From positions 1 to 52,409 of the forward strand of contig JAZDIA010000019.1 in assembly GCA_043805375.1 (NCBI GenBank): DNA of 52,409 nucleotides, written 5' to 3'. The notes beneath the pieces are model-generated. The model worked only from the letters and a program-made list of their open reading frames with translations, had not been told where the DNA came from and searched no databases. Positions 5,204 to 31,677 of this stretch are shown here, one piece after another. The position numbers and the translations under genes were made by a program. The stretch is from Pseudomonadota bacterium (GTDB taxonomy: Bacteria; Pseudomonadota; Gammaproteobacteria; Burkholderiales; SG8-39). The first letter of the stretch is position 1. Every line of letters starts with the position of its first letter.

Positions 5204-5207
5204 AGAG

Positions 5208-5671: not shown

Positions 5672-5686
5672 GTCGCTCGAAAAACA

Positions 5687-6609: not shown

Positions 6610-6622
6610 GAGAGCAAAAGCC

Positions 6623-7162: not shown

Positions 7163-7173
7163 AGGATTGCGCC

Positions 7174-7479: not shown

Positions 7480-7492
7480 GAGGAGACAGAGC

Positions 7493-7888: not shown

Positions 7889-7900
7889 GGGGAGGAAATC

Positions 7901-8434: not shown

Positions 8435-8448
8435 GCGGAGCTAAAGCC

Positions 8449-8805: not shown

Positions 8806-8817
8806 TCGGGGACGAAT

Positions 8818-9351
8818 ATGGCGAAGATGCAGGGCAGAATGCAGGGCAAGATGCAGGGCCAGGACGACCGCGGTGACGGCCTGCGCGAGAAGATGGTTGC
8901 GATCAACCGCGTCACCAAAGTGGTGAAGGGCGGCCGCATCCTCAGCTTTGCCGCGCTCACCGTGGTCGGCGACGGCGACGGCGGGGTCGGCATGGGCAAG
9001 GGCAAGTCGCGGGAGGTTCCGGTGGCGGTGCAAAAGGCGATGGAAGAAGCCCGGCGCAAAATGTTCCGCGTCAGCCTCAGGAACGGCACGCTGCACCATG
9101 CCGTGTGGGGTCACCACGGCGCGGCCAAGGTCTACATGCAGCCGGCGTCCGAAGGCACCGGCATCATCGCCGGCGGCGCCATGCGCGCGGTATTCGAGGT
9201 CATGGGCATCACCAACGTGCTCGCCAAGTGCATCGGCTCGGGCAGTCCTTACAATGTGGTCCGAGCCACTCTGCAAGGATTGAAATCCATGAACGCGCCG
9301 TCGGAGATTGCTGCGAAGCGCGGCAAGTCGGTCGAAGAAATCACCGGCTGA
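8818..9351 (+). CDS. rpsE: 30S ribosomal protein S5
   Basis: [12 protein letters not shown]...GTGIIAGG. Confidence 0.99.
8824..8859 (+). repeat. 12-bp tandem repeat x3 encoding (K/R)MQG at the S5 N-terminus
   Basis: AAGATGCAGGGC AGAATGCAGGGC AAGATGCAGGGC. Confidence 0.9.
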
Positions 9352-9359
9352 GGATAATT

Positions 9360-9542
9360 ATGATGGACAAGAAACTCAAGGTTACCCTGGTAAAAAGCGC
9401 GATCGGCTGCAAGGCCGCGCACCGCGCCACGGTGCGCGGGCTGGGTTTGAAGCGCGTCAACCAAACCGTGGAGCTTCAGGATACCCCTGCGATCCGCGGC
9501 ATGATCGACAAGGTGTACTACCTGGTGAAGTGCGAGGCATAA
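9360..9542 (+). CDS. rpmD: 50S ribosomal protein L30
   Basis: [16 protein letters not shown]...GLGL...DTPAIRGMI; RBS GAGG upstream. Confidence 0.96.
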
Positions 9543-10187
9543 ATGCAGCTCAATACGATCAAGCCTGCAGCTGGCGCGAAGCGCGCTCGGCGTCGCGTTG
9601 GCCGCGGCATCGGCTCTGGCCTGGGAAAGACCGCGGGACGAGGCCACAAAGGGCAGAAGTCGCGTTCCGGCGGCTTTCACAAAATCGGATTCGAGGGCGG
9701 CCAGATGCCGCTGCAGCGGCGTCTGCCCAAACGCGGTTTCAATTCGCTCGCGAGCGGGCTCACCGCCGAAGTCCGACTTTCGGATCTGCAAAAAATGGCG
9801 GGCACGGATATCGACCTGAAGGCGCTCAAAGGGGCCGGCGTGGTGCCGGAAGCCACCGAAGCGGTCAAGGTCATCCTCTCGGGCAAGCTTGAGCGCAAGG
9901 TCAGTCTGAGCGGCCTGCGTGTCACCAAGGGCGCCAGGGCGGCAATCGAAGCGGCCGGCGGCAGCATCGCCGCGATCGAAGTGAAAGCGCCGGTGGGCAA
10001 GGGCAAGAAGGCCAAGGCCAGGGTCGAAGCCATTGCCAAGGCCAAAGCCAGGGCGGAGGCACCCAAGGGAGCCGCAGCTAAACCGGCGGAAAAAGTGAAA
10101 GCCAAACCCAAGGCGCCCAAGGCAGTAGCGGGCGAGCCGGCGGCCAAAGACAAATCCAAACCCAAGGCGAAGGGCGAGAAGGCTTAA
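9543..10187 (+). CDS. rplO: 50S ribosomal protein L15 with ~70-aa Lys/Ala-rich tail
   Basis: [24 protein letters not shown]...FEGGQMPL. Confidence 0.98.
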
Positions 10188-10202
10188 TTGCCGCTCAGCT
10201 AA

Positions 10203-11528
10203 ATGGCTACCCCGACTCAAAACATCGGCAAGACCGGCAAATTTGGCGACCTGAAGAAGCGTCTGCTGTTTCTGCTCGGCGCGCTGGTCGTGTTCCGCAT
10301 CGGTGCGCACATTCCGGTGCCCGGAATCGATCCGAACGTGCTGGCCGAGCTGTTCAAGTCGCAGCAGGGCGGGATCCTGGGCATGTTCAACATGTTCTCC
10401 GGCGGCGCCTTGTCGCGCTTCACCATCTTCGCCCTCGGTATCATGCCCTACATCTCGTCCTCGATCATCATGCAGCTGATGACGACGGTGTCGCCGCAGC
10501 TCGAGCAGTTGAAAAAGGAAGGCCAGGCTGGACAGCGCAAAATCACTCAGTACACGCGCTATGGCACCGTGTTCCTGTCACTGTTTCAGGCGGCTGGCAT
10601 TTCCATTGCGCTCGAATCGCAGCCAGGGCTGGTGCTTGAGCCGGGGCTCATGTTCCGCTTCGTCACCGTGAGCACGCTGGTGACCGGTACCATGTTTCTG
10701 ATGTGGCTGGGCGAGCAGATCACCGAGCGCGGCCTGGGCAACGGCATTTCCATCATTATTTTCGCCGGTATCGCCGCCGGTTTGCCCAACGCCATCGGCG
10801 GCACGCTGGAGCTGGTGCGCACCGGCGCGATGCACCCGCTCACAGCGCTGCTGATCGCGGCGGCAGTGGCGCTGGTAACCTGGGCCGTGTGCTTCGTCGA
10901 ACGCGGCCAGCGCAAGATCCTGGTGAACTACGCCAAGCGCCAGGTCGGCAACAAGATCTACGGCGGACAAGCCTCGCATCTTCCGTTCAAGCTCAACATG
11001 GCGGGAGTGATCCCGCCGATTTTCGCATCTAGCATCATCCTGTTCCCGGCGACCTTGGCCAACTGGTTCGGCCAGAGCGAAGGGATGAGCTGGCTGCGCG
11101 ACATCTCCGGCACGCTCTCGCCCGGCCAGCCGATTTACGTCATGCTGTATTCCGGTGCGATCATCTTTTTCTGCTTTTTCTATACCGCGCTGCAATACAA
11201 TCCCAAGGATACCGCCGACAATCTGAAAAAGAGCGGCGCCTTCGTGCCCGGTATCCGTCCGGGCGACCAGACTGCGCGCTACCTGGAGAAAATCCTGACG
11301 CGGTTGACCCTGGCCGGCGCGGTATACGTGACCTTGGTCTGCCTGTTGCCAGAATTCCTGATCCTGAAATGGAACGTGCCATTCTACTTTGGCGGAACTT
11401 CGCTTCTGATTATCGTGGTGGTAACCATGGATTTCATGTCCCAGGTGCAGGCCTACATTATGTCGCATCAGTATGAAAGCCTGCTGAAAAAAGCAAATTT
11501 CAAAGGGGCCGGATTCCCGACGAGATGA
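10203..11528 (+). CDS. secY: Preprotein translocase subunit SecY
   Basis: [17 protein letters not shown]; [16 protein letters not shown]; [10 protein letters not shown]. Confidence 0.99.
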
Positions 11529-11531
11529 GAG

Positions 11532-11555
11532 AACAAGGGGATGCATCCCCTTGTT
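11532..11555. repeat. Perfect 24-bp palindrome in the secY-infA gap
   Basis: AACAAGGGGATGCATCCCCTTGTT equals its own reverse complement. Confidence 0.9.
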
Positions 11556-11594
11556 GATCCAGGGATTCAGAGCGGAGAGCGACACGAAAGGGAT

Positions 11595-11813
11595 ATGGCG
11601 AAAGAAGACGTTATCGAGATGCAGGGGGAGATAGTCGAGAACCTGCCGAATGCGACCTTCAGGGTGAAGCTGGAAAATGGCCACATGGTGTTGGGACATA
11701 TCTCCGGCAAGATGCGCATGCATTACATCCGTATCCTGCCCGGTGACAAGGTGACGCTGGAGTTGACGCCGTATGATTTGACAAGAGCGCGGATCATTTT
11801 CCGCGCGAAGTAG
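11595..11813 (+). CDS. infA: Translation initiation factor IF-1
   Basis: [11 protein letters not shown]...[19 protein letters not shown], 72 aa. Confidence 0.98.
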
Positions 11814-11862
11814 CCCGGGTGCGGGTATAGCAACGCGGACTAGGGCGCAGCAGGAGAGGACC

Positions 11863-11976
11863 ATGAAAGTACAGGCATCGGTGAAGAAGATGTGCCGCAA
11901 CTGCAAGGTGGTTCGCAGAAAGGGCGTGGTGCGCGTCATTTGCACCAACCCGCGGCATAAACAGCGTCAAGGCTAA
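11863..11976 (+). CDS. rpmJ: 50S ribosomal protein L36 (zinc-ribbon type); not in the ORF track
   Basis: [47 protein letters not shown]. Confidence 0.98.
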
Positions 11977-11980
11977 CTGG

Positions 11981-12010
11981 TTGGCAGAGAAGATGATATT
12001 AAGCTATCAT
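11981..12010 (+). promoter_or_regulatory. Candidate alpha-operon promoter
   Basis: TTGGCA, 18-bp spacer, TATCAT in the AT-rich gap before rpsM. Confidence 0.4.
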
Positions 12011-12039
12011 AATCAGTTTCGCATTCCTGGAGTGAACTA

Positions 12040-12420
12040 ATGGCCCGCATTGCAGGCGTCAACATTCCAAACCACCAGCACACCGAGATTGCGTTGACCG
12101 CGATCTTCGGCATCGGGCGGGAGCGGGCGCGGGCGATCTGTGCCGCCGCCAAGGTTACCGGATCGGCCAAGATCAAGGACCTGTCGGATTCCGATGTGGA
12201 GCGCTTGCGCGACGAGGTGGCCAAATTCACGGTCGAGGGCGACCTGCGGCGCGAGGTGTCGATGTCGATCAAGCGCCTGATGGATCTGGGCTGCTATCGC
12301 GGTTCGCGCCACCGCAAAGGCTTGCCCGTGCGCGGGCAACGCACACGCACCAACGCGCGCACGCGAAAGGGGCCGCGTAAAGCCGCGATCAAGATGAAAT
12401 CCGTGGCGACCAAGACTTAA
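12040..12420 (+). CDS. rpsM: 30S ribosomal protein S13
   Basis: [10 protein letters not shown]...[18 protein letters not shown]. Confidence 0.99.
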
Positions 12421-12455
12421 GCCCCGGATTAACGGATACATAGAGGAAAGCACAA

Positions 12456-12866
12456 ATGGCCAAACCCCCGAGCACTTCCTCCGCCGCAGCGGCGCGTGTG
12501 CGCAAGAAGGTGAAAAAGAACGTTGCCGAAGGCGTCGCGCACATCCATGCGTCGTTCAACAATACCATCATCACCATTACCGACCGCCAGGGCAACGCGC
12601 TATCGTGGGCGACTTCCGGTGCCGCCGGCTTCAAGGGTTCGCGCAAGAGCACGCCGTTCGCCGCCCAGATTGCCGCCGAGCAAGCCGGTAAGGCGGCACA
12701 GGAATGCGGCGTGAAGAACGTCGAGGTGCGCATTAAAGGGCCGGGTCCGGGACGCGAGTCTGCGGTGCGCGCCTTGAACGCCATTGGACTGAAGATCACC
12801 AGTATCAGCGACGTGACGCCGGTACCGCACAACGGTTGCCGCCCGCCCAAGCGTCGCCGGATCTAA
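12456..12866 (+). CDS. rpsK: 30S ribosomal protein S11
   Basis: HASFNNTI...[10 protein letters not shown]...[14 protein letters not shown]. Confidence 0.99.
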
Positions 12867-12880
12867 GAGGAGACTGGAAC

Positions 12881-13510
12881 GTGGCCCGCAACCTAGACCC
12901 GAAATGCCGCCAGTGCCGCCGCGAGGGCGAGAAATTGTTCGTCAAAGGCGAGAAATGCTTTACCGACAAATGCGCCGTCGAGCGCCGCGCCTATGCGCCG
13001 GGCCAGCATGGCCAGAAGAGCGGCCAGCGCCTGTCCGACTACGGCAAGCAACTGCGCGAGAAACAGAAAATCCGCCGCATCTACGGCATCCTTGAGCGCC
13101 AGTTCCGCGGCATTTATGCCGTCGCTGCGCGCCAGAAGGGGATCACCGGCGAGAGTCTGCTGCAGTTGCTAGAGTCGCGCCTGGACACAGTGTGCTTCCG
13201 CATGGGTTTTGGTGCCTCGCGCAACGAGGCGCGCCAGGTCGTGCGTCACAACGGCATCATGGTAAACGGCAAGCGCGTCAACATACCGTCCTACCAGGTT
13301 CGCACCGGCGACGCCATTGAGGTGGCGGAAAAGGCCAAGAGCCAGCTGCGCATCAAGGGTGCGTCCGAGGCGGCCGCCTCGCGTGGCATTCCCGAGTGGC
13401 TGCAGGTGGATACCACCGCGATGAAGGGCATGTTCAAGGCCAAACCGCAGCGCACCGAGCTGCCTTCGACCATCAACGAGAGCCTGGTAGTCGAACTGTA
13501 CTCGAAGTAA
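12881..13510 (+). CDS. rpsD: 30S ribosomal protein S4 (GTG start)
   Basis: KCRQCRREG...QLREKQK...LESRLD...VVELYSK; RBS GAGGAG. Confidence 0.98.
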
Positions 13511-13537
13511 TTGTCAAAGCTTCCCAGAGGAACCTCC

Positions 13538-14521
13538 ATGCAAAGCAGTGGATTTCTGAAACCGCGCATCATCGACGTGCAGAACATCGCTCCCAATCAT
13601 GCCAAGGTGGTGATGGAGCCATTTGAGCGTGGCTACGGCCACACGCTGGGCAACGCCCTGCGGCGCGTGCTGCTGTCCTCGATGCCGGGTTTTGCCCCGA
13701 CCGAGGTGCAGATCTCGGGCGTGCTGCACGAATACTCGACCATCGACGGCGTGCAGGAGGACGTAGTCGACATCCTGCTCAACTTGAAGGGCGTGGTGCT
13801 GAAGGTGCACAACCGCACCGAAGTGCTGCTGACGCTAAAGAAGAAGGGCGAGGGTGCGGTGACTGCCGCTGACATCGAGGTTTCGCACGACGTGGAAATC
13901 ATCAATCCAGAGCAAGTCATCGCCCATCTGTCGCCAGGCGGCAAGCTGGAAATGCAGATAAAGGTCGAGCGCGGCCGTGGCTACGAGCCGGGTAACATGC
14001 GCGCGATGTCGGGGGAGACCAAGGGCATAGGCAAGATCATCCTCGATGCTTCGTTCTCGCCGGTGCGTCGCGTCAGCTACGCGGTCGAGTCGGCGCGCGT
14101 GGAACAGCGCACCGATCTCGATAAGTTGATCATGGATATCGAGACCAATGGCGTGGTCGAGCCGGAAGAGGCGATCCGCTACGCCGCGCGCGTCCTGGTG
14201 GACCAGTTGTCGGTGTTTGCGGCCCTCGAAGGCACACCGATCGCAAGCGAGCCGGTCAAGGCGCCGCAGGTCGAACCCATCCTGTTGCGTCCGGTGGACG
14301 ATCTCGAACTCACGGTGCGTTCGGCTAACTGCCTGAAGGCCGAGAACATCTATTACATTGGCGATCTGATTCAGCGCACCGAGACCGAGCTGCTGAAGAC
14401 GCCGAACCTAGGCCGCAAATCGCTCAACGAGATCAAGGAAGTGCTGGCCTCGCGCGGGCTGACCCTGGGCATGAAGCTGCAGAATTGGCCCCCAGCCGGG
14501 CTGGAAATCGCCCACGTATGA
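13538..14521 (+). CDS. rpoA: RNA polymerase subunit alpha
   Basis: [22 protein letters not shown]; [12 protein letters not shown]; [11 protein letters not shown]. Confidence 0.99.
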
Positions 14522-20554: not shown

Positions 20555-21900
20555 TCAGGCCGGTTGCAACCAGTCTATGACCACGGCGCGCAGGCGCGCG
20601 GTAAAACGGTCCCAGGCGTTCGGATTCTGCACTGCCTCGGCGCGGTAGAACGACGGGCACAGGATGGCTGCATGAGCGACTTCGCCGCACAGGCCGCAGC
20701 CGACGCAGCTGTGGTCGACGTGCGCCACCGGGTCCACCTTGAGCGGGTCCAATGAAGCCTTCAACGTGAGCGAGGGGCAGGCGGAGAGCCGGATGCAAGA
20801 ATGGTCGCCCGAGCAGGTGTCGTCGTCCACGCCGAAGCGGGTGCGCACCACGCGCGCACCCGACCCCAGCAGCCGCGCGAGAATGGGGCGGATGCGGCGC
20901 TGGCGCTCGAGCTGGCACTCGCCCTCTGCGACGATGACTTTGAGCCCGGGTTCGTCGGTAGTGAAGGCCTCTAGCAGCGCGCGCGCCATGTCGGCGACGC
21001 GGTAGGTATAGACGTTGCGCAGCCATTTCACGCCGGCGCCGCGCAGCGTGTTCTCGATCGCGCGCTCGGCGCGCACCGCGCTTTTCTCTTGCAACAGTTC
21101 ATCGCTCTCGGCGCGTGGCGAGGAGACCAGGTCCTGCGTTCCGGTGGCCGCGGTGTAGCCATTCTTCATGATCAGCAGCACCGCGTCACCGCCGTTCAGC
21201 TGGTTGGAGACGACGCCGAAGAGAAAGCCGTTGTGCCAGAAGCCGCCGTCGCCCATGATCGCCAGCGAGCGGCCGGCCAGCATAGGCGCGACGCCGGCCG
21301 CGCTCGCGAGGCTCATGCCGTAGCCTAGGATGGAATGACCGAGCGAGAACGGCGCGAAGGTCGCGAACGAATGGCAGCCGATGTCGGCCGAGATGTGACG
21401 CTTGCCGATGTCGCGCTCGACCAGTTTGATCGCGGCGAACACCGGACGTTCGGGACAACCGACGCAGAAATTCGGCGGCCGCGGCAGCAGCGGCGAACCG
21501 AGCAACTCCGCGGCGCGCGCCCACGGCGTCCACCGCTTCGAACCAGCGAATCCCGGACGAAATGTCCAGCTACGGCGCATGTTTCGCAAGGAAGCTCACC
21601 AGGCCGCGCACGATCACCTCGGAGGTATATTCTCCCGCCATGATCAGCAGGTTCTTGCCATGCAGCCCGGTCTGCGCAAGCTGTTCCAGTTCGGGCTGCC
21701 CGGCCGCGCGGCGCAGCAGGGCGGCGATATCCTGTTCGATGAATTCGGGCTGGCCCTCTTCCAGCACTAGCACCGCGGCCTTGCCCGAGCAGAAGGCGGT
21801 AATTTCCTCGGGCACCAGCGGATAGACCACGTTGAGCGCGAGGATGGGGATGCGGCAGTTGCCGAAATCGTCGGCGAGCCCGACAAGTTGCAACGCGCGC
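20555..21900 (-). pseudogene. iorA: Indolepyruvate:ferredoxin oxidoreductase alpha (IorA-like), 5'-deleted, with nonsense codon and frameshift
   Basis: VLEEGQPEFIE, PRPPNFCVGCPERP, DIGCH, MGDGGFWHNG (TPP), CVGCGLCGE ferredoxin; TAG at 21570-21572 and frameshift near 21520. Confidence 0.82.
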
Positions 21901-22518
21901 GGCGCGCACGCCCTCAGCGCGCGCCTTTGCATCTGCGAGGGCACCGCCCTCCACCAAGGTGTCTAAAATGCGCAGGAAACTCGCCTTGGCGCGCCGGTTG
22001 ATGTCACCGTAGCCCTTGATAAGCCGGCCGCAGAGCGCGATTTCCAGCGCGAGTCCCGGCTCGGGCGCGGCGGCGATGGCGCGCCTGGCCAGTACCTTAG
22101 CCGCCGCAACGATGCGCTCGCTGTCGATGCGGCCGTCGCCCAGCGCAATTTTCTCGTCTACCGTGTAGATGCGGTGAGTCGACGCAATGAGCGTGGTGCG
22201 CTCGGGCGTGATATAGCCGTTTGACAAGGCGCGTCCTGCTTCCAGCAGCTCGGAAGCTAGCATCACGTCGATGTTGGCGGGCGAGGGCGCAAGCGTCATC
22301 ACCGGTCGCCGGCCGCCTAGCAGCGCCGCGCGCGCAGGGTACAGCTCGATGTAGTAGGTGGTCGCTCCGGTGCGCTGCGCCACTCCGGGGATGGAGGTGC
22401 TCTGTACGGGGTAGTCCGCGGCTGTCGCGGCGGCGATGATCCAGTTGGCTAGCACCCCGCCGCCTTCGCCGCCGAGTGCGGCGATCAGGATGGTAATTGG
22501 TCGTTCTGGAATGGGCAT
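21894..22518 (-). pseudogene. iorB: Indolepyruvate oxidoreductase beta-family (IorB-like) gene with large internal deletion, fused to the iorA remnant
   Basis: ALGGEGGGVL, SIPGVAQRTGATTYY; residue ~148 jumps directly to the family's C-terminal RLIKGYGD motif. Confidence 0.78.
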
Positions 22519-22593
22519 GGGTTTACTCGAAGGAATCGATCACGCAGAGTACGAGATCGTGCTCACGGGCGGTAGCCGACGCAGGGCTACGGT

Positions 22594-23946
22594 TCAGGCC
22601 GACGCTGCAGGCGACTGAGGTTTGGCTGCGGCAAAACCCTGGATGCGCGCGAGGTTCGTTGCCAGGGTGCGCTCTATATGGGCGACCTGCTCCGGCACAA
22701 GGTGCCGGTACTTGCCGAGCACTTCGAGATACTCGGTAATCGGACGCGCGTGCTCGACCGGGCGCGTCAAGCGCAGGCCGTCGCGCGGATTGAACTCCCA
22801 CAGCAGCACGAAATTGGTCTCGACCGCCTTGCGCGACACCTCGATGTTCTGGTCGGAAGGAAAGCGCCAGCCGGTAGTGCAGGGAGAGTAGATGTGCAAA
22901 TAGGCGAATCCGGTCTTGGCCGCGACGATCGCGCGGTCGAGCTTGTCGTATAGATCCTCCATGAAGGCGGTGGAGGCGGTCGCGACGTACTCGCAGTCGT
23001 GCATCACCATCAAGAGCGGCAGGTTCTTCGCGTCCTGGGTCTTGCCGTGGGCGCGTTCGCCCACCGGCGTGGTCGAGGTCCAGGCGCCATACGGCGTGCA
23101 GCCGGAGCGCTGCATGCCGGTGTTCATGTAGCCTTCGTTGTCGACGCAAATGTACAGGATCTCCTCGCCGCGCTCGGCCGCGCCCGAAAGCGACTGGAAG
23201 CCCACGTCCGCAGTGCCGCCGTCGCCGGCCAGCGCCACCGCCATCACGTCGCGGCCGCTGCGCTTGTAGAACCGGCGCACGCCCGCGAGCATGGATGCGG
23301 TGTTGGTGAGCAGCGGATGGAATACCGGCACCTTGGTGCCGGTGAGCCCGTTGTAGCCGACCGAGCCCATGCCCGGGATGCAGCCGGGTGGGGTCGCCAC
23401 CACCACGTCCGGACCGATGCGCCGCAGCGTATGGCGCATGATCAATTCGGCGTTGCAGCCCTGGCAGCCGGAGAGTCCGGGCACGAACAGGTCTTCGAGA
23501 TTGCCCACCTCGTTATAGATGCGCGCGGCCTTGACGTGCTTCAGTGCACCTGGGGTGCAGGCCTTGACGCAGGCCGGGGCACCTTCACACAGGTCGCACT
23601 TGATCACATGGGCCGAAAGCGCGTCGTAGGCGATTCCGCCGTAGGCGCAGCCGAGGGTGCACAGCAGGCAGTTGACGCACTTCGTTCCGTCCCAGTCGAC
23701 CACGCCGCTGCCGGCGTTTTTCGCGAGCGCCGCCGCCGGGCAGTTGAGCACGCATTCCGGATCGCCGCACTGGCGGCAAATCGCGAGTTCAAAGCCGTCG
23801 CCGGAAGGCACGATCTGGATGCGCGATCGGATCTGGTCGTCCGACTGCGCCTTGGCCTGCGCGCAGGCGCTCATACAGTCAAGGCAGCCGTCGCAGGCTT
23901 CCGGCTTGAAATTGATGGTCTCGTAGGCGGCGCCCATGGTGGTCAT
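22594..23946 (-). CDS. padI: Phenylglyoxylate dehydrogenase beta subunit (N-terminal ferredoxin + TPP domain)
   Basis: CDGCLDC...CVNCLLC ferredoxins; GCQGC; AGDGG...DNEGYMNTGMQRS; closely recalls Aromatoleum evansii PadI; start overlaps padH stop (TAATG). Confidence 0.88.
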   Translation of the reverse strand: MTTMGAAYETINFKPEACDGCLDCMSACAQAKAQSDDQIRSRIQIVPSGDGFELAICRQCGDPECVLNCPAAALAKNAGSGVVDWDGTKCVNCLLCTLGCAYGGIAYDALSAHVIKCDLCEGAPACVKACTPGALKHVKAARIYNEVGNLEDLFVPGLSGCQGCNAELIMRHTLRRIGPDVVVATPPGCIPGMGSVGYNGLTGTKVPVFHPLLTNTASMLAGVRRFYKRSGRDVMAVALAGDGGTADVGFQSLSGAAERGEEILYICVDNEGYMNTGMQRSGCTPYGAWTSTTPVGERAHGKTQDAKNLPLLMVMHDCEYVATASTAFMEDLYDKLDRAIVAAKTGFAYLHIYSPCTTGWRFPSDQNIEVSRKAVETNFVLLWEFNPRDGLRLTRPVEHARPITEYLEVLGKYRHLVPEQVAHIERTLATNLARIQGFAAAKPQSPAASA

Positions 23947-25208
23947 TATCTCCAGTTCCTGGACATCAGCGCGCGTGCCGTCTGCTGCGGTGAACGCAGG
24001 AACGCCAACTTTTCGTCGCCCAGATCGATTGCGCGCAGTATCAGTTCCCACATGATGCCGGGGTCGAACGCGCTATTGACCCCGAAGATCCCGGCGAGAC
24101 GGCTGTCCTTGAGCACGATCTTGAGATAACGGTTCTGCTCGGCGTCCACCTGTTTTTTTACCTCGACGCCCGATTGCTCCAGGGCACCTTCATGCACGCC
24201 GACCGAAACCGCCTGCTGGCCGAAGAAGCTGTAGGTGTTGAGCGGCACGCCGCCGGCGTAGGTCTTCGATCCCGGGTCCTCCGCCATCGCCATGCCGGCA
24301 ATGCGTCCCTGGTCGACCGCATCCGGAAGAATGCCGTTGATGATCTGCTCGCCGGTAAAAAAGCCGCGCGCCTGGGCCACGTCTCCCGCGGCCCAGATGT
24401 TGGCGATATTGGTGCGCATGTGATCGTCGACCAGCACCCCGCGCTCGATCGCGACGCCGCTGCCCTCGAGAAAATCGGTCACCGGCGCAACGCCGGTGGC
24501 GACGAGCAACAGGTCCGCATCGAGTTCGGCGCCATCGGCCAGCTTGGCGCGGCAACCTTCGCCGTCGGCCGCGAACGAAGCCACATGCTTGCCCGTGAAC
24601 AGGCGCACGCCGTTGGCGGCGAAAACTTTTTCGATCATGCCGGACGCTTCCGCGTCGAAATAGCCGGCGAGGACATGGGGCAGTATTTCCACCACGCTCA
24701 CCGCCACGCCGCCCTTGGCCAGGTTCTCCGCCGCGCGCATGCCGATCAGGCCTCCGCCCAGCACCAGCGCGCGCTTGATGCGCGGCAGCGCCTTGCGCAG
24801 GGCGACAGCGTCGCTGAGGGTGCGCAGCACGTGAAACTGCAGTCCGGCGAGGCCCGGGATCGCCGGCAACAGTGGCGCGGCGCCGGTCGCGAGCAGCAGC
24901 TTGTCGAAACCGATTTTGGTTCCATCGGCGAATTCGACTGCGCTCTCGCCCGCGTTCACCTTCCGCACTTTCGCGCCGCGCAGGTAGCTCACCTTGTGCT
25001 CGGCGAAATAGCCCTCGTCGCGCAGGAATACGCGACCCGGGTTGGAGCGGCCCGAGACCACATAGGGCAGGACCGTGGGCGAATACGGCAGGCTGTCGTC
25101 GCGGGTGAGGAGCGTGACCTCCTGCTCCGCGTCGTGCAGCCGGATCGCGTGCAGAGCCGACAGCGCCGCGTGGCTCGCGCCGACGATAAGGTAATGAGTG
25201 TGCTGCAT
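23946..25208 (-). CDS. padH: Phenylglyoxylate dehydrogenase epsilon subunit (FAD/NAD oxidoreductase)
   Basis: PYSPTVLPYVVSG, LLATGA, GGGLIG, WAAGDVAQARGFF, C-terminal MSRNWR as in PadH. Confidence 0.88.
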   Translation of the reverse strand: MQHTHYLIVGASHAALSALHAIRLHDAEQEVTLLTRDDSLPYSPTVLPYVVSGRSNPGRVFLRDEGYFAEHKVSYLRGAKVRKVNAGESAVEFADGTKIGFDKLLLATGAAPLLPAIPGLAGLQFHVLRTLSDAVALRKALPRIKRALVLGGGLIGMRAAENLAKGGVAVSVVEILPHVLAGYFDAEASGMIEKVFAANGVRLFTGKHVASFAADGEGCRAKLADGAELDADLLLVATGVAPVTDFLEGSGVAIERGVLVDDHMRTNIANIWAAGDVAQARGFFTGEQIINGILPDAVDQGRIAGMAMAEDPGSKTYAGGVPLNTYSFFGQQAVSVGVHEGALEQSGVEVKKQVDAEQNRYLKIVLKDSRLAGIFGVNSAFDPGIMWELILRAIDLGDEKLAFLRSPQQTARALMSRNWR

Positions 25209-25227
25209 CTCAGTGTCCGTTACGAAA

Positions 25228-25288
25228 TGAGGGGATACATCCCCTCATACTCCCCTAAGTCAGGGCGGTTTCAGTCATTCTGAAACAG
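25228..25288 (-). repeat. Two-hairpin intergenic element, copy 1 (padG-padH gap)
   Basis: 50/63 identical by hand alignment to 48586-48648; hairpins GGGCTGTTTCAG/CTGAAACCGCCC and ATGAGGGGAT/ATCCCCTCAT. Confidence 0.8.
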
Positions 25289-25292
25289 CCCC

Positions 25293-26516
25293 CTAGTCCT
25301 TTTCGTTGAGCCACACCGTCTCGGCCGGCTGGCCGTCGCGCGCGAGATCGGCGGTGCGGCGGATCACCCGCTCGAAGTGTCCCAGCGTGAGGTCGGCGCC
25401 GGAGAGCCCGCCGATGAAACTCATCGCCGGGATGCGCCTGGGGGCGCAATACAGGGCTGTCATCGTGTCCTGAAACAGCGGCCCGCAATTCCAGCCGAAC
25501 GAGACCGAGCGATCGACCACGCCCACGGCTTTCACCTCGGCCAACGCGGCTGCGAGCGCCTGGACCGGGAACGGGCGATAGGTTTTCACCTTGACCAGGC
25601 CCACTTTCTCGCCGCGCGCGCGCGCCGCGTCCACCGCGTCCTTGGCGGCGCCGGTCATGCTGCCGATGGTCACGATCGCGTGCTCGGCGCCGTCCATGCG
25701 GTAAGACTCGACCAGCGGCGCATGGCAGCGGCCGAAGCGCTGCCCCCATTCTTCGTGCACCTCGGTAATGACGGCGAGCGCGTTCTGGGTGCCGCTGCAC
25801 TGGCCTTTGCGGTAACGCACAAAGGCCGATGGGCCGATGCCGCCGGCGCCGCCGGTCAGAGGATCGACCGCCATCGGGCGTTGCGGATCGAGCGCCACAT
25901 GCCAGTTGACGTTCTTCGCGCCGAGGAACGCGCCGACCTCCTCCTGGTCCGGCAGCTCCGCGCGCGCGGCGCCGAAGGACAGGTAGTTGCCGTCGTGGTT
26001 CACGTTCACGGGCAGCATCACGTCGCGGTGTTCGGCGATCTTGTAGGCCATGATGGTGGTATCGAGCACCTCCTGCACCGACTCGCAGTACATGTGGATC
26101 CAGCCGGCTTCGCGCACCGACATCGCGTCCTGGTGCCCGCCCCAGACGCTCTGCGGCGTGAGCATGTCGCGGGTGACGATGGTCATCACCAGCGGCAGGC
26201 GCAGGCCCGGCGTGCGCACATACGGCTCGAACATGAAGGCGAGTCCGGGGCCGGAAGTCGCGGTGTAGGTGCGCGCGCCCGCGAGACAGGCGCCCTGCAG
26301 CACCGACAGCACCGAATGCTCGCCTTCGACGTCGACGAGTTCGGCGCCGAGCCGGCCGTCGGCGATGAATTTGGCCAGATACTCGACCAGAGAGGATTGC
26401 GGCGTGATCGGATACACCGCGACCATGTCCACATTGGCGAGCGATACCGCCCATGCCGCCGCTTCGTTGCCGTCGCAGACGATGAGTTTCGATTTTGGCT
26501 TGAGTATCGTGCTCAT
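25293..26516 (-). CDS. padG: Phenylglyoxylate dehydrogenase alpha subunit
   Basis: DGNEAAA, YPITPQS, EGEHS, TATSGPG of 2-oxoacid:ferredoxin oxidoreductase alpha; start overlaps padF stop. Confidence 0.88.
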   Translation of the reverse strand: MSTILKPKSKLIVCDGNEAAAWAVSLANVDMVAVYPITPQSSLVEYLAKFIADGRLGAELVDVEGEHSVLSVLQGACLAGARTYTATSGPGLAFMFEPYVRTPGLRLPLVMTIVTRDMLTPQSVWGGHQDAMSVREAGWIHMYCESVQEVLDTTIMAYKIAEHRDVMLPVNVNHDGNYLSFGAARAELPDQEEVGAFLGAKNVNWHVALDPQRPMAVDPLTGGAGGIGPSAFVRYRKGQCSGTQNALAVITEVHEEWGQRFGRCHAPLVESYRMDGAEHAIVTIGSMTGAAKDAVDAARARGEKVGLVKVKTYRPFPVQALAAALAEVKAVGVVDRSVSFGWNCGPLFQDTMTALYCAPRRIPAMSFIGGLSGADLTLGHFERVIRRTADLARDGQPAETVWLNEKD

Positions 26517-26806
26517 TACGCTGCCTCCTGGATCATCGCAATCGCTCGTTGCGGGCACTCGGTGGCGCAGATGCCGCAGCCTTTGCAGGTCGCAAGATTG
26601 AAGTCGAACCAGGCAGGGCGCTCGACCACGCATTGCACCGGGCAGTAGAGCCAGCATACGGCGCATTTCACGCACTTGCCGCGGTCGACCACCGGGCGCA
26701 TGCTGCGCCAGTCTCCCGGCAGCATCGGCGTAGGTTTGGTCGCGATCGGACACAGGTCGTCCGGGATCGTCGATGCGTCGAACATGTCGTATGCCTGGCG
26801 TTTCAT
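26516..26806 (-). CDS. padF: Phenylglyoxylate dehydrogenase delta subunit (2x[4Fe-4S])
   Basis: PDDLCP...MLPGDWRSMRPVV...CVKCAVCWLYCP...CKGCGICATECP. Confidence 0.88.
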   Translation of the reverse strand: MKRQAYDMFDASTIPDDLCPIATKPTPMLPGDWRSMRPVVDRGKCVKCAVCWLYCPVQCVVERPAWFDFNLATCKGCGICATECPQRAIAMIQEAA

Positions 26807-27382
26807 GCCGCCGCCTCCGCCATCCTCTCTATGTGGTGCACCCGGGTCGATTCGTAGCCGCGTTCGAGCGCGACCATGTTCTGCGCGAGTCCGGCATCGC
26901 GAAAATCCGACTTCTGGATCGCGGCGCGCAGCGAATCGAGCGAAACCAATCCGGTGGTGCGCGCGAAGGCTCCCCAGCATGATGGTGTTGGTGATCGAGC
27001 GCTTGAATAGGTCGAGCGCGATCGAAACCGCGTCGCACAGCCCGACCGTCGCGACCTCGCGCGGAAGCTGAAAGTCGGCAATCGTCTTGGATCCGGTCTG
27101 CACCAGCACGGCGCCGTCCTTGATGCCGTCGAAAATGTTCACCGCGCGCGCCACCGTCGGGTCGATGCACAGGACGCAGTCCGGATGATAGATGTTGGTC
27201 ATCTACCGGATCTCGCGCTCGTCGAAGCGCAGGTAGCTTGCCACCGGCGCGCCGCGGCGCTCGAAACCGAAAGACGGTACGGCGACGACGAACTTGCCTT
27301 CGAGCACCAGGGCGGTGGCGAGGATGCCGCCCGCCAGCACCGCGCCCTGCCCGCCGCGACCGTGGATGCGGATTTCGTACAT
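26803..27382 (-). pseudogene. padE: Phenylglyoxylate dehydrogenase gamma subunit, interrupted
   Basis: [13 protein letters not shown]...[11 protein letters not shown]; in-frame TAG at 27203-27205 (EREIR*MTNIY) and an extra G near 26972-26975 that shifts TNTIMLG/AFARTTG. Confidence 0.85.
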
Positions 27383-27438
27383 GCTTCCTCCCCCTTGCGC
27401 TTGCTCCAGCATGACCTGGGCAAGCCTCTGATGAAACG

Positions 27439-27467
27439 AGAGTAGGCGCGGGTCTGGCATTTGTCAA
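27439..27467 (-). promoter_or_regulatory. sigma70 promoter of the pad operon
   Basis: Minus strand TTGACA (27467-27462), 17 bp, TACTCT (27444-27439). Confidence 0.6.
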
Positions 27468-27489
27468 ATTGATGGAAAATATGATATAT

Positions 27490-27504
27490 ATTCCATTCAT
27501 GAAT
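27490..27504. promoter_or_regulatory. LysR-type T-N11-A operator
   Basis: ATTC-N7-GAAT overlapping the regulator's own start codon, upstream of the pad -35. Confidence 0.5.
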
Positions 27505-28407
27505 GTAACGGACCTCGATCTGAACCTGCTGCGCGCCTTCGACGCCATCGCGACCGCGGGCAGCGTCACCGTCGCCGGCGAGCGCCTCGGGCTGTCGCAG
27601 CCGGCCATGAGCAACGCGCTTTCGCGGCTGCGCCAGTTGTTTGACGACCCGCTATTCGTGCGCACGCCGCGCGGCATGCGCCCTACGCCTTTCGCGCAGC
27701 AACTGGCGCAGCCGGTGCGCGAGGCGCTGCGCCTGATTCAGACCGCGCTGCAGCAGCACGCCGGCTTCGAGCCGAAGAGCTCCGATCGCGCGTTTCGTTT
27801 TTACATGTCGGACATCGGCGAAATGGTGTTCCTGCCCGGCCTGCTCGAGCGTATCAAGCAGGACGCGCCGGCGGTCAAGATAGAAGTGGTGCGGATTCCG
27901 ATCAAAGACGTCCACGCGACGCTGGAGGCGGGCGAGATCGACCTTGCGGTCGGCTTCCTGCCCGGCCTGACGACCGGCACGCGCCAGCAGCCGCTATTTC
28001 GCGAGCACTATGTGTGCATGCTGCGCGCCGATCATCCGGTGATCGGCCAAAGGATCAGCGCGAAGCAGTTCCGCGAAGCCGCGCATGTGCTGGTGTCGTA
28101 CGTCGGCAGCGGGCATCAGGTGATCGAAGATACCTTCGTCGCCGAAGGCTTGAGCCCTCGCATCGTGGCGCGCGTGCCGCATTTCCTGGTGGTGCCGATG
28201 ATCCTGGCGCGCACCGACCTGATCGTCACCGTTCCCTCCCGTGTCGCCGCCGCGTTCGCGCGGCTGGGCAACTTCAAGGTGCTCAAGCTGCCGCTGGCAA
28301 TGCCCGGCTTCGAGGTGCGGTTGCATTGGCACCAGCGCTTCGACCAGGACCCCGCCAACCGCTGGCTGCGCGAGGTGATGACGGAGCTGTACGCAGAGCA
28401 GGCTTAG
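27499..28407 (+). CDS. LysR-family transcriptional regulator (NahR/DntR-like), divergent from pad
   Basis: DLDLNLLRAF...LSQPAMSNALSRLR..FDDPLFVRT...DPANRWLR. Confidence 0.93.
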   Translation: MNVTDLDLNLLRAFDAIATAGSVTVAGERLGLSQPAMSNALSRLRQLFDDPLFVRTPRGMRPTPFAQQLAQPVREALRLIQTALQQHAGFEPKSSDRAFRFYMSDIGEMVFLPGLLERIKQDAPAVKIEVVRIPIKDVHATLEAGEIDLAVGFLPGLTTGTRQQPLFREHYVCMLRADHPVIGQRISAKQFREAAHVLVSYVGSGHQVIEDTFVAEGLSPRIVARVPHFLVVPMILARTDLIVTVPSRVAAAFARLGNFKVLKLPLAMPGFEVRLHWHQRFDQDPANRWLREVMTELYAEQA

Positions 28408-29009
28408 AGCGGACTGCAAACTTTCTGGATGCTTTGGCGTTGCGCGCCTGGTGCGCGTATTAGAAAGCTTCGTTCTCGATTGCCGGCTTGATGTCCTCGA
28501 CCAGATCGGCGAGGTGCTTAGTTGTAGTAGTCGCGACATGAAAGGCATCCGATGCGATCAGGACTTGTGGGGCTGCAACCGGCCACTATGCATAGATCTC
28601 AACTAGGGAGAGGTCGTACGGCCAGGATCTGTTTGATGCAGGCGCAGCGCGGCCGTTGGCGAGGTGGGTCAGCGATTTTCTAGACATAGTTTCGGCAGCC
28701 GAGGCCAGTGGTGGTCCCACTTCGGTAGACCTCTATTGGTAACGTCCGACTCTCTCGACTCCAGTGCATCAACTGGTTCCAGGCGCCGGACTCGCTCATG
28801 CGGTTCTTGCAGACGCTGTAACTATGTAAAGAACGCGCCGGCTCCTGATGCGCCGCGCCGCAGGGGCCGGCGTCATTCTTCTCAACATAACTACGCCTAG
28901 TTGGGATCTATGCATAGGGGTCGCTATGTAAAGCTTTACATAGCGGCCAACTGCGGACATTCGCGACGCAGCCGCCCCGCATAGTCTTGGCTTTACCTGG
29001 CGCCAACCG

Positions 29010-29420
29010 CTAGTGCCCTTCCGGCGCTCCTTGCCACAGCATGTCATAGCCCAACTCCTTGGTATCGGAGCACATCTTTGCCAGTGCCTCGAACTTAGTG
29101 GAGAAGATTGTGTCAGCGTGCGATTTCTCGTGCTCTCCGAATGAGCGCCAGTACGTGACGATGACGTAGTGCTCGTCCGCGCTGCGCGATGCATTGAGCG
29201 AACCTTCGTCGGAAACGAAACCGGAGAACTTAAACACCTGGCCGGCGATGAACCCGCCTTGGTCTCCGCCGTATGTTTCCTTGACGACGTTGCACATCTC
29301 GCCCACGGCCAGTTCGACTTCCTCGAAGGTGACGCCCGGCTTGAGCTTGACGGTATTGAACAACATCTTTGCGCCATATGGCAGCGTGATGGGATCGAAC
29401 ATATCGGTGGTTTCCTTCAT
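29010..29420 (-). CDS. Hypothetical dimeric alpha-beta barrel protein, sulfur oxygenase reductase-like motifs
   Basis: 136 aa; VGEMCNVV, GFIAGQ, TYWRSFGEHEKSH, ELGY (alternative start ATG 29402). Confidence 0.7.
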   Translation of the reverse strand: MKETTDMFDPITLPYGAKMLFNTVKLKPGVTFEEVELAVGEMCNVVKETYGGDQGGFIAGQVFKFSGFVSDEGSLNASRSADEHYVIVTYWRSFGEHEKSHADTIFSTKFEALAKMCSDTKELGYDMLWQGAPEGH

Positions 29421-29649
29421 TGTCAGTTATTCGTGGAAGGTGGCCCCGTGACGGCCGAAGGTGAGACTTCCTACTGGGCTGATTTGGATCAGCTTCCTCG
29501 ATAACGGTAGCACAACATTTTGAGTTTTGGTATAGCACGACATTGAACTTCCGCGACCGATTCGGCTCATGGCGGAGACGCGTAAAGTGGGGTGGCGCAT
29601 GAGGCAAGCGGCATTGCCCGCCGATGCCCTGCTGTAGCGACGCTGTTCG

Positions 29650-30078
29650 TTACCGGTTAGCAATCTTCCACGGATTGAGCAGCGGCAGTTTCAGGTCCTG
29701 GAAATGTCGCTGGTTGCGGGTGGCGAGCGTGGCGCGGCGCGCAAGGGCGATGCCTGCGATCAGTGTGTCGCGCACGTCCACCGGGCGTCCGGCCTTCTGG
29801 CGCATGGCCGCCAGCGAAGCGGCTTCGGCTGCGGCGGCGCCGTCGAAATCCAGCACGCGGTTCTCCAGGTCCTCCGACAGCGTTCGCGCAAACGCCGCTT
29901 CCAGAGCCTGCCGCCGTCGGCCTTTGGGCAGCAATGCGAGGCCGAGCCGTGTCTCGAACAGGGTAATGCTGGTAATCCAGATCGATTCAGCGGCCTGGAG
30001 ATCCAGCCACGCCACTACCGCAGCGTCCGGCGGATTTCGCATCAGCGCCGAAAGCACATTGGTATCGAGGATGATCAT
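29650..30078 (-). CDS. vapC: VapC/FitB PIN-domain toxin
   Basis: MIILDTNVLS, E42, RDTLIAGIA, LATRN..HF, NPW; coupled to the upstream antitoxin. Confidence 0.92.
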   Translation of the reverse strand: MIILDTNVLSALMRNPPDAAVVAWLDLQAAESIWITSITLFETRLGLALLPKGRRRQALEAAFARTLSEDLENRVLDFDGAAAAEAASLAAMRQKAGRPVDVRDTLIAGIALARRATLATRNQRHFQDLKLPLLNPWKIANR

Positions 30079-30323
30079 TTGCCGAAATTCGCCGCGCGCA
30101 CCGGCTGGCCGTGCAATTCAGGCAGATCCGTCGTCAGTCCGTCCGGCCCGAAGCGCGCGGCGATGCGTGATCCCAGCCGGGTGACCGGTCGGTTGTCGTC
30201 TTTCACCGCATTGCGCAGAATGTGCCGCACTTCCTCTTCCATGCTGCGCCCATGGCTCGATGCGCGGCGCTTCAGGCGCGTCTTTACTTCTTCTTCAATC
30301 CGGCGAACCACCAACTGGACCAT
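30075..30323 (-). CDS. FitA-like ribbon-helix-helix antitoxin
   Basis: QLVVRRIEEEVKTRLKRRASSHGRSMEEEVRHIL; 4-nt overlap with vapC. Confidence 0.9.
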   Translation of the reverse strand: MVQLVVRRIEEEVKTRLKRRASSHGRSMEEEVRHILRNAVKDDNRPVTRLGSRIAARFGPDGLTTDLPELHGQPVRAANFGK

Positions 30324-30348
30324 TGATTACTCCCTCGCGAACATTGAC

Positions 30349-30362
30349 GATATCATGATATC
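30349..30362. promoter_or_regulatory. Palindromic autoregulatory operator of the TA operon
   Basis: Perfect palindrome GATATCATGATATC 25 bp upstream of the antitoxin start. Confidence 0.6.
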
Positions 30363-30384
30363 ACATGGGCGCCTCAAGCGGACT

Positions 30385-30470
30385 GCGGTCTGCACTGACG
30401 CGAGCGCTTCCACCAGGATCCCGCCAACCGCTGGCTGCGCGGGGTCATGGCCGAGCTGTACATGGAGTAA
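30385..30470 (+). pseudogene. Duplicated 3' end of the LysR gene
   Basis: 30403-30461 matches 28334-28392 at 53/59 nt; reads LH*RERFHQDPANRWLRGVMAELYME*. Confidence 0.85.
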
Positions 30471-30537
30471 ACTGCCCGCCTTCAGCGGCGACTCCAATGT
30501 CGAGGTGAATGTGGCCAAGAAACAGGAAAGCGGTTTC

Positions 30538-31677
30538 ATGAGTTATCGCGCCAGCGCGGCGAAAATCGAATCGATCCAGGCCTGCACCGTGCGCGTGCCG
30601 CTGGATCGGGTCACTTCGTTTGCCACGCGCACCGTGGCGGCGCGCGACTACGGCCTGGTACGGGTGCGCACAGCGGACGGCGCCGAGGGCCTGGGCTTTT
30701 GCTACGCCGGCAGCAAGGCCGGCGGCCTGGTGGCCAAAGCGGTGAGGGAGCTGTTCGTGCCGCTGCTCATCGGCAAGGACCCTTACCGGGTCGAGGGCCA
30801 CTGGGAGGCCATGTACCGGGAAGCGGTGCTGCAGGGCCGCGCCGGCGCGGTGATGCGCGCGCTTTCCATCATCGACATCGCGCTGTGGGATCGCAATGCC
30901 CGTGCCGCCGGGCTGCCGCTGTATAAGTTCCTCGGCGGCTATGCCGAGGGCGGGGTCGAGGCGTATGCGAGCGGCGGTTATTACCTCGACGGCAAAACGC
31001 TGGCCAAGCTCGGCGCCGAACTCGCCGGCTACATGGAGCAGGGCTTTCGTGCGGTGAAAATGAAGGTCGGGCGCCTGGATCCCAAGGCGGAGGAGGCGCG
31101 CATCGCCGCGGCGCGCAAGGCCATCGGTCCCGAGGTGCTGCTGATGCTCGATGCCAACAACGCCTGGTCCGACCTGCCCACCGCGCTGCGCTACGTGGCC
31201 CGCTACGAGGCCTACGATCCGTATTGGATCGAGGAGCCGTTCGGAGTCGACGACATCGACAACCACGCGCGCCTGGCCGAGCGCACGCCGGTGATGGTCG
31301 CGACCGGCGAAATCGAAGTCGGGCGCTGGCGCTTCAAGGAACTGCTGGAGAAGGACGCCGCGCAGATCCTGCAGACCGATGCCGCGGTGTGCGGCGGCAT
31401 CAGCGAATTCCGCCGCATCGCGGCGACCGCGGCGAGCTACGGCGTGACCGTGTGCCCGCACTGGTTCCACGACCTGCACGTGCACCTGGTCGCATCCACG
31501 CCCAACGCGCGCTTCGTCGAATTGTTTACCGACGACCAGGTGCTCAACTTCCGCCGCCTGGTCGACCGCCAGCTCGAGTTCAAGGGCGGCAAGCTGCTGC
31601 TCCCCACGGAGCCGGGCCTGGGCTTCGGCTTCGACGCCAAAATGATCAAAAAGTACGCGCTCGATACCTGGGCGTGA
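30538..31677 (+). CDS. Mandelate racemase/muconate lactonizing (enolase superfamily) acid-sugar dehydratase-like enzyme
   Basis: IDIALWD, YASGGYY, KMK, LDAN, IEEP, TGE metal ligands, PGLG. Confidence 0.9.
   Translation: MSYRASAAKIESIQACTVRVPLDRVTSFATRTVAARDYGLVRVRTADGAEGLGFCYAGSKAGGLVAKAVRELFVPLLIGKDPYRVEGHWEAMYREAVLQGRAGAVMRALSIIDIALWDRNARAAGLPLYKFLGGYAEGGVEAYASGGYYLDGKTLAKLGAELAGYMEQGFRAVKMKVGRLDPKAEEARIAAARKAIGPEVLLMLDANNAWSDLPTALRYVARYEAYDPYWIEEPFGVDDIDNHARLAERTPVMVATGEIEVGRWRFKELLEKDAAQILQTDAAVCGGISEFRRIAATAASYGVTVCPHWFHDLHVHLVASTPNARFVELFTDDQVLNFRRLVDRQLEFKGGKLLLPTEPGLGFGFDAKMIKKYALDTWA

Follow-up and report, generated by a model that had tools for sequence, protein, structure and literature searches.

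A widespread family of half-size proteins resembling the N-terminal half of sulfur oxygenase reductase

Sulfur oxygenase reductase (SOR; PF07682, NF047630; PDB 2cb2, 6m35, 6qpa and 7x9w) is a 24-subunit hollow sphere that disproportionates elemental sulfur with the help of oxygen; it is well studied but taxonomically narrow, being restricted to few thermophiles and acidophiles. It sits in the same clan as the ABM and Dabb proteins (PF03992 clan), that is, in the dimeric alpha+beta barrel superfamily. According to one report (PMC7398979), the SOR chain of ~300 residues contains two fused ferredoxin-like repeats that form an 8-stranded barrel; Cys31, His86, His90 and Glu114 are essential by mutagenesis, and the last three are the ligands of the iron. 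Here, we describe a gene on the minus strand of a chromosomal stretch of 52,409 nucleotides from a Pseudomonadota bacterium (contig JAZDIA010000019.1, positions 1 to 52,409; this whole stretch is called the window below), whose product of about 130 residues resembles one such repeat. The gene belongs to a large unnamed family, without a Pfam or NCBIfam model, whose closest characterized relative, judged by sequence profile, is the catalytic N-terminal half of SOR. No half-size or one-repeat SOR relative is described in the literature searched, supplementary files excepted.

The gene was first listed as an open reading frame (ORF) of 136 residues with an ATG start (29010..29420, minus strand). 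All of the strings quoted for it in the original prediction, MLFNTVKLK, VGEMC43NVV, GFIAGQ, YWRSFGEH97EKSH101, C117 and E122LGY, are present in the translation. An ORF of that length does exist, but homology places the start at Met7, so that the true coding sequence is probably 29010..29402 (coding 29013-29402, stop codon 29010-29012) and the protein is probably 130 residues long. This assignment is made because every homologue match that reaches the N-terminus in protein searches begins at query residue 7, because blastn similarity to 90 other loci runs, in almost every case, from base 29402 to the stop codon, and because a Shine-Dalgarno-like AAGGA sits 10 nt 5' of the ATG at 29402. The latter motif is held by the six in-frame codons MKETTD (29403..29420, minus strand), which are probably untranslated and are covered by similarity in only 2 of 11 same-genus relatives. 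Residue numbers used here are those of the 130-residue protein (key residues C37, H91-E-x-x-H95, C111 and E116); adding 6 gives the numbering of the 136-residue ORF (C43, H97, H101, C117 and E122).

Searched alone, the window's protein has no family match in Pfam (only CT0912-like_C, E 0.17) or NCBIfam (only PhoC, E 0.21), and no PDB chain matches it at E≤10. A profile of nine sequences spanning both subfamilies of the family, the window's own and a sister subfamily described below, finds SOR in the PDB (6m35, E 0.0018; 2cb2, 2yav and 7x9w, ~0.02) with an alignment over SOR residues 6-104, and finds no ABM chain at E≤10, despite the dozens of ABM chains in the PDB. Profile-profile comparisons with hhalign used 12 SOR sequences from genomes of the class as targets and 27 Pfam-ABM proteins from relatives as controls. 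The family aligns with full-length SOR at a probability of 74.8% and with its N-terminal half at 85.1% (E 6e-6), compared to 0.8% for the C-terminal half and 9.7% for the 27 ABM proteins. In the reverse direction, a hidden Markov model (HMM) of the SOR N-terminal half, run against a test set of 3362 sequences that includes the family gene of 80 loci, has 328 family proteins and 0 ABM proteins in its top 400 matches, the remaining 72 being unclassified locus ORFs. Among 18950 NCBIfam models, the SOR model NF047630 is the only or best match for 4 of 4 sister-subfamily proteins (E 1.4e-5 to 7.8e-3), spanning SOR positions 5-110; two proteins of the window's subfamily have no SOR match in NCBIfam, and one of them (128 residues) weakly matches heme oxygenase (E 6e-4). 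By these profile measures, the resemblance to SOR exceeds chance, and it is specific to the N-terminal half.

The correspondence extends to individual residues. In the hhalign alignments, N16 is paired with the invariant Asn of SOR, C37 with Cys31, the GF motifs with each other, T83-x-W85 with the T-x-W of SOR, H91-E-x-x-H95 with His86-Glu-x-x-His90, and C111 with Cys101; a plain HMM alignment to SOR placed the cysteine one residue off. The SOR N-repeat and the family share the same residue order: Asn, Cys31, GF, T-x-W, H-E-x-x-H, one pocket cysteine and, probably, Glu114. The W-x5-H-E-x2-H spacing is identical to that of SOR, while the first histidine follows the cysteine by 54 residues here and by 55 in 12 genomic SORs, and the glutamate follows the second histidine by 21 and 24 residues, respectively. 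The SOR motifs and spacings given in the original prediction agree with PDB 6m35 and with these 12 sequences. In the alignment of the sister subfamily, the invariant E116 and Y119 are paired with SOR Glu114 and the aromatic residue that follows it. E116 probably points toward the helices bearing C37, H91 and H95, because the strand periodicity turns it away from Y119 and W123.

Several features set the family apart from SOR within what is the same superfamily fold. SOR has ~308 residues in two fused repeats, whereas the family has ~130 residues and only one ferredoxin-like repeat, so that only a homodimer can complete its barrel. Absent from it are the chimney helix-loop and the C-terminal helix with which SOR builds its 24-subunit sphere, and C111 matches only the first (Cys101) of the two pocket cysteines. 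In contrast to the few thermophiles and acidophiles with SOR, its carriers are mesophilic and widespread.

A divergent subfamily of full-length SORs, ~290 residues long, was noted at five loci (L020-L024, genomes G205, G213, G315, G059 and G255). It matches PF07682 at E about 1e-60, compared to 1e-135 for canonical SORs, and keeps the Cys, the H-E-x-x-H, a C-x-x-C and the Glu. These proteins are the best forward matches of the HMM of the half-size family.

The family is large. In a collection of 5.8 billion proteins, 3617 of 3635 candidates are relatives at E≤1e-3, as are 246 representatives at the 50% identity level, and among the matches listed at least 588 stretches of species genomes, out of 599 candidates, encode a relative. 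The source databases label its members 'hypothetical protein' or, in a few cases (JGI), 'heme-degrading monooxygenase HmoA'. With so wide a distribution, the gene is not special to the toxin-antitoxin islet on which the original prediction placed it. Residue conservation was counted over 345 distinct sequences, of which 312 are cellular and 33 viral. C37 is kept in 311 of the cellular sequences, H91 in 310, E92 and H95 in 308 each and E116 in all 312, each of the five also being present in 33/33 viral sequences; C111 is kept in 304/312 and 29/33. The four positions whose conservation had been proposed as a check (C37, H91, H95 and E116) thus stand at 308-312 of 312 in cells and 33 of 33 in viruses.

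The gene is genuine and tightly constrained. The ratio of non-synonymous to synonymous substitution rates (dN/dS) is 0.04-0.13 against 11 relatives, which indicates strong purifying selection. Proteobacterial and Nitrospirota copies are 80-86% identical in protein sequence, and synonymous changes between them have reached saturation (dS of roughly 2 upward); the identity across phyla is thus due to constraint, and recent transfer is ruled out as its cause.

Members of the sister subfamily, ~150 residues long, are 29-34% identical to those of the window's subfamily (alignment A1) and carry the same key residues, with a Lys/Ala-rich tail and without a signal peptide. Four of these proteins (P0412, P0413, P0397 and P0242; 147-152 residues) bear the NCBI name 'ligand-binding protein SH3'. 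No SH3-like feature was seen in the four; they have an ABM-type fold, and SOR is their only or best NCBIfam match. This name appears to be a misannotation that has propagated.

An AlphaFold2 model built on a 54-sequence alignment (predicted local distance difference test, pLDDT, 90.5; predicted template modeling score, pTM, 0.82) contains a beta-alpha-beta-beta-alpha-beta ferredoxin-like unit, with predicted strands at residues 12-20, 51-58, 78-85 and 111-120 and helices at 26-44 and 88-108. The expectation of a single domain of about half the size of SOR is borne out by this model. Homodimerization, also anticipated, is predicted with a score of 0.84 (runs 0.78, 0.86 and 0.84) against 0.00 for the best of 3 controls. 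Among proteins of solved structure, 20 of 30 one-chain pairs and 1 of 23 single chains attain the mark used. At least 81% of contacts are common to the runs, with a partner pLDDT of at least 81; two iron ions were included in the job, unscored. In the predicted dimer, strands 51-60 of one copy (cross-strand pairs at 55-60) lie against 118-125 of its partner, and Y119 and W123 make dimer contacts, so that ferredoxin-like folds pair through their sheets as in a dimeric alpha+beta barrel. Since ABM dimers are well known, the homodimer result may stem from likeness to these solved structures.

The best Foldseek matches of the model in the PDB are Dabb and ABM proteins (E about 3e-6). In a second structural search, independent of Foldseek, 63 chains reached Z≥8, with the dimeric alpha+beta barrel fold in all among the matches listed. 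On the evidence of the model, the structure alone is that of an ordinary 'ABM-type barrel' and does not single out SOR. Structural comparison with SOR had been proposed as a check, with ABM barrels as the adverse outcome, and ABM monooxygenases are indeed the best matches. The ABM/Dabb proteins (RslO4, 7bio; SnoaB, 3kg0; ActVA-Orf6, 1lq9; IsdG/IsdI) are of similar size and, as predicted for the family, form a homodimeric barrel via strand pairing. What sets the family apart from them is an arm at the N-terminus and, joining strands 2 and 3, a conserved loop of 20 residues (GF.S.EGS); its signature of Cys, HExxH and Glu may be a further difference.

The distribution of the family across genomes is linked to that of dissimilatory sulfur metabolism, its carriers being mainly sulfur-oxidizing bacteria and some phages of these. 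Among 400 genomes drawn evenly from the class, the family occurs in 72 (the window's subfamily in 21, the sister subfamily in the others) and DsrA in 126. Both are present in 65 genomes, the gene only in 7 (including the incomplete source genome), DsrA only in 61 and neither in 267. DsrA thus accompanies 65/72 carriers and 61/328 non-carriers, an odds ratio of 41 whose p-value is overstated, since related genomes are not independent, and it was also found in 10 of 10 further proteobacterial carriers. The proposed co-occurrence with dsr genes is accordingly strong, with Nitrospirota as an exception. Of the 13 genomes in the sample that carry SOR, 8 also carry the half-size family, and the gene is retained in two genomes of 1.1 Mb.

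Gene neighborhoods point in the same direction at some loci. Neighbors were annotated in 20 of 80 species-genome loci (134 ORFs) and then counted over all 80 with tblastn. A dsrC-like gene is divergently adjacent in 19/80 loci, and a PF09559 'Cas6'-like gene, a gene for a 241-residue protein and a TauD-family gene, followed by dsrA, form a neighboring operon in 18-21 of the 80. This arrangement was found in 0 of 11 same-genus loci, each of which extends only ~1.5 kb to either side. In two loci (L035 and L040), the SOR-like gene lies 58 nt after iscX on the same strand, at the end of a complete iscU-iscA-hscB-hscA-fdx-iscX operon (L035, 86-4380). No conserved operon partner emerged from a clustering of 2991 ORFs, in which no real neighbor cluster extends beyond 17/80 loci; a cluster of 523 members over 79/80 loci is presumed to consist of low-complexity GC-rich ORFs. 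Small ORFs abutting the gene in Nitrospirota, considered as partners, look like remnants.

Two of these neighbors are unusual in themselves. The DsrC-like protein of betaproteobacterial metagenome-assembled genomes (L047, 5602-5943, minus strand, and 18 other loci) ends in ...MRKGGY and contains no cysteine; it cannot, therefore, be a sulfur-carrying DsrC. The three-gene operon between the SOR-like gene and dsrAB (L047, 6393-8691; likewise L039, L037 and L045, ~20 loci in all) encodes a protein that matches PF09559 'Cas6' at E 1e-54 to 1e-58, with no CRISPR context, the 241-residue protein, which belongs to no family, and a TauD-family dioxygenase.

A further set of 19 loci of the class, in which the 95 of 147 called ORFs nearest the gene were annotated (L188 was omitted as a near-copy of L187), has variable neighbors. 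A DegP/HtrA-type protease gene lies upstream in 4 of 13 sister-subfamily loci (L181, L186, L189 and L192), preceded by an Hsp20 gene in two of the four, which hints at a stress regulon. In this set, genes for a YeeE-type sulfur transporter with TusA, for ATP sulfurylase and for a rhodanese were each seen at a single locus.

Relatives with 36-63% identity are also encoded on 39 viral contigs of IMG/VR. INPHARED phage genomes gave no tblastn match, and PHROGs holds no family for the viral SOR-like proteins. Six viral contigs (81 ORFs) were examined in detail, and T4-like genes are present on four of them, including rIIA/rIIB on L141 and gp32, gp59, a late-promoter regulator, a DNA end protector and a tail tube on L162. 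Sulfur and iron-sulfur genes recur beside the viral copies: a cysteine-bearing DsrC (C-terminus PKPTGCV) is encoded within 1 kb in 8/39 loci, 15/39 have an IscA-like gene (PF01521) no more than 4 kb away and iscU is adjacent in 4/39, so that at least one of dsrC, iscA-like or iscU is near the gene in 23/39. The association with dsr, dsrC and isc genes is therefore found in both cells and phages.

We favor, with slightly better than even confidence, the reading that these proteins are half-size homodimeric relatives of the SOR N-repeat, which use iron to process sulfane sulfur in the cytoplasm of bacteria that oxidize sulfur by the Dsr route. From the features described above we infer metal binding, a persulfide on C37, the reaction and the physiological role. 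A cytoplasmic ferredoxin-like domain of ~130 residues would pair into a homodimeric alpha+beta barrel. C37, as the counterpart of the substrate-carrying cysteine of SOR, would carry a persulfide or polysulfide, and H91, H95 and E116 would correspond to the 2-His-1-carboxylate iron site. At the metal, the sulfane sulfur on C37 might then undergo oxidation or disproportionation, with sulfur-relay and Fe-S proteins acting beside the enzyme in the cytoplasm of these oxidizers. A functional analogy, and no more than that, is offered by the persulfide dioxygenase ETHE1/PDO, which converts persulfide sulfur to sulfite at a mononuclear non-heme iron with 2-His-1-carboxylate coordination, but has an unrelated metallo-beta-lactamase fold.

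A bolder version, which we regard as tentative and on balance doubtful, makes the family a missing, widely conserved cytoplasmic component of Dsr-type oxidation: a minimal SOR-like non-heme-iron homodimer that would take sulfane sulfur from DsrC/TusE and TusA onto C37 and release sulfite and/or sulfide. Such a protein could perhaps represent an ancestral single-repeat form, whose duplication gave rise to the 24-subunit SOR, and, in T4-like phages of sulfur oxidizers, could serve as an auxiliary gene that steers the sulfur and Fe-S metabolism of the host. The family is present in about half of the DsrA-carrying genomes among the 400 sampled, in contrast to the narrow range of SOR. Should the protein prove to be a sulfur enzyme that depends on iron and cysteine, the cytoplasmic sulfur-oxidation pathway would gain a step, SOR chemistry a tractable 130-residue model and the sulfur auxiliary genes of phages a new class. 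Otherwise, it would still be among the most constrained unexplained small proteins of sulfur oxidizers.

A number of observations weigh against an iron-dependent sulfur enzyme related to SOR. The kinship to SOR that had been proposed is upheld by profiles, which single out the N-terminal half, but not by the curated SOR models or the structural ranking. All curated SOR thresholds lie above the family: the sister-subfamily proteins score 15-24 bits where the NF047630 cut-off is 400, the same model does not match the window's protein, and PF07682 has no match in the window's genome at E≤10. The 54-sequence profile reaches SOR in the PDB only at E 0.032, near spurious triosephosphate isomerase matches at 0.12, and although the forward HMM of the family places SOR-like proteins at the top, their score is just 12.6 bits. 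SOR is absent from the best 50 Foldseek hits listed. In the second structural search, the two nearest neighbors are the ABM monooxygenases RslO4 (Z 13.7, root-mean-square deviation 1.6, 99 residues aligned) and SnoaB (Z 13.6, 1.9, 97 residues), whereas the SOR of Halothiobacillus (6qpa) ranks 36th (Z 10.3, 3.4, 122 residues), and the match covers its C-terminal half, residues 147-308. At the residue level, the second pocket cysteine of SOR (Cys104) has no counterpart in the family, and the alignment of the window's subfamily pairs the poorly conserved E128, not E116, with the SOR glutamate. The genomic link also has gaps. DsrA was found in 0 of 5 carriers from Nitrospiraceae, Nitrospira or Acidobacteriota and not in the source genome, which is 75% complete; the link is weak in the window's own taxonomic family, with DsrA in 11/14 carriers versus 6/10 non-carriers; gene annotation found no sulfur gene in the window; and genomic association alone does not show a reaction.

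Much of this would be expected if the family were an ordinary ABM/dimeric alpha+beta-barrel protein, such as a cofactor-independent oxygenase, an HmoA/IsdG-like heme degrader or a small-molecule binder, with no sulfur chemistry, and if its likeness to SOR reflected shared ancestry plus a W..H helix motif. ABM monooxygenases and Dabb proteins are its top structural neighbors, the JGI names and the weak heme oxygenase match of the 128-residue member point the same way, an Atlas cluster is named 'putative ABM domain-containing protein', and both the failure of the curated SOR models and the Nitrospirota carriers without DsrA fit as well. The Pfam ABM model, however, misses the gene in the source genome and its relatives: PF03992 does not match the window's protein at E≤10, and a genome-wide search with it found other genes only. 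The hhalign probability of 9.7% to ABM compared to 85.1% to the SOR N-terminal half, the SOR-like W-x5-H-E-x2-H spacing, the alignment of an invariant cysteine with the essential Cys31, the odds ratio of 41 for DsrA and the position of the gene beside dsrC in cells and phages likewise argue against it, and we consider this explanation unlikely, though still to be taken seriously.

The isc neighbors raise another possibility, namely that the protein is an accessory of Fe-S biogenesis, a small donor of iron or persulfide feeding IscU or IscA, and not an enzyme of energy metabolism. An invariant cysteine with His, His and Glu would suit the carriage of sulfur or iron, and the co-directional gene 58 nt 3' of iscX, together with the viral iscU and iscA-like neighbors, would be consistent with such a role. 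The isc linkage is seen in only 2/80 cellular loci, however, and phage auxiliary genes gather in hypervariable regions regardless of pathway. Moreover, Fe-S assembly is universal, yet the gene is present in 65/126 DsrA-positive versus 7/274 DsrA-negative genomes, so that we rate this role as quite improbable. Least credible of all, in our estimate very improbable, is the idea that the gene travels or works with mobile or toxin-antitoxin modules, perhaps as a defense or addiction accessory. The vapBC pair directly upstream on the same strand would agree with it, as would PIN and AbiEii genes near the gene in L037, RES-Xre near it in L181, and its patchy presence in the genus (13/22 genomes), often near contig ends. 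Conservation of DNA and protein is nevertheless confined to the gene itself, no toxin-antitoxin or defense gene recurs among neighbor clusters that, the presumed low-complexity cluster apart, reach at most 17/80 loci, and retention in the two 1.1-Mb genomes and purifying selection across phyla fit a housekeeping-type enzyme.

In the window, the SOR-like gene is a lone gene beside vapBC, in a region without sulfur genes. The window is chromosomal, with a cluster of ribosomal-protein genes, secY and rpoA at 174-14521. The surroundings of the gene consist of a phenylglyoxylate-dehydrogenase-like oxidoreductase cluster and a LysR gene, then enolase-family, epimerase and DHDPS-family genes. The oxidoreductase cluster (20555-27460) is of the 2-oxoacid:ferredoxin oxidoreductase type and includes NCBIfam equivalogs, above their cut-offs, of NADH-dependent phenylglyoxylate dehydrogenase beta (PadI, 813 bits) and epsilon (PadH, 612 bits). 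Seventeen other families of the order yielded no copy of the SOR-like gene.

Upstream of the SOR-like gene lie a gene for a VapC-type PIN-domain toxin (29650..30078, minus strand; PF01850, E 6e-16) and one for a VapB-type antitoxin, a FitA-like ribbon-helix-helix protein (30075..30323, minus strand; PF22513, E 3.8e-16), which overlaps vapC by 4 nt. A 71-nt direct repeat on the plus strand brackets the 2.07-kb stretch that holds the SOR-like gene and vapBC. Its first copy (28322..28392) is the 3' end of an intact LysR-family gene (27469-28407), and the second (30391..30461), 86% identical, is what remains of a LysR 3' end and contains an in-frame TGA. The ~72-nt motif corresponds to a conserved LysR C-terminus and is present on its own in 17/22 same-genus genomes. 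As proof of an inserted island, the repeat is weakened by this frequency, with no empty site found and no integrase in the stretch, although insertion is plausible. Of the 'islet' stabilized by a toxin-antitoxin pair that was proposed originally, the adjoining vapBC is thus confirmed, whereas a repeat motif so common in the genus is no proof of insertion.

Between the LysR gene and the SOR-like gene, 28408-29009 holds no convincing ORF. Rfam has no match in 28300-30600, and a scan for promoters and terminators gave counts near the shuffled expectation. This region, 3' of the SOR-like gene, contains a 28-nt inverted repeat (28580-28607 / 28896-28923) whose arms are 89% complementary and 288 nt apart, directly followed by a perfect 20-nt palindrome, CTATGTAAAGCTTTACATAG, at 28924-28943. 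A binding site, or else the relic of a small mobile element, may account for them.

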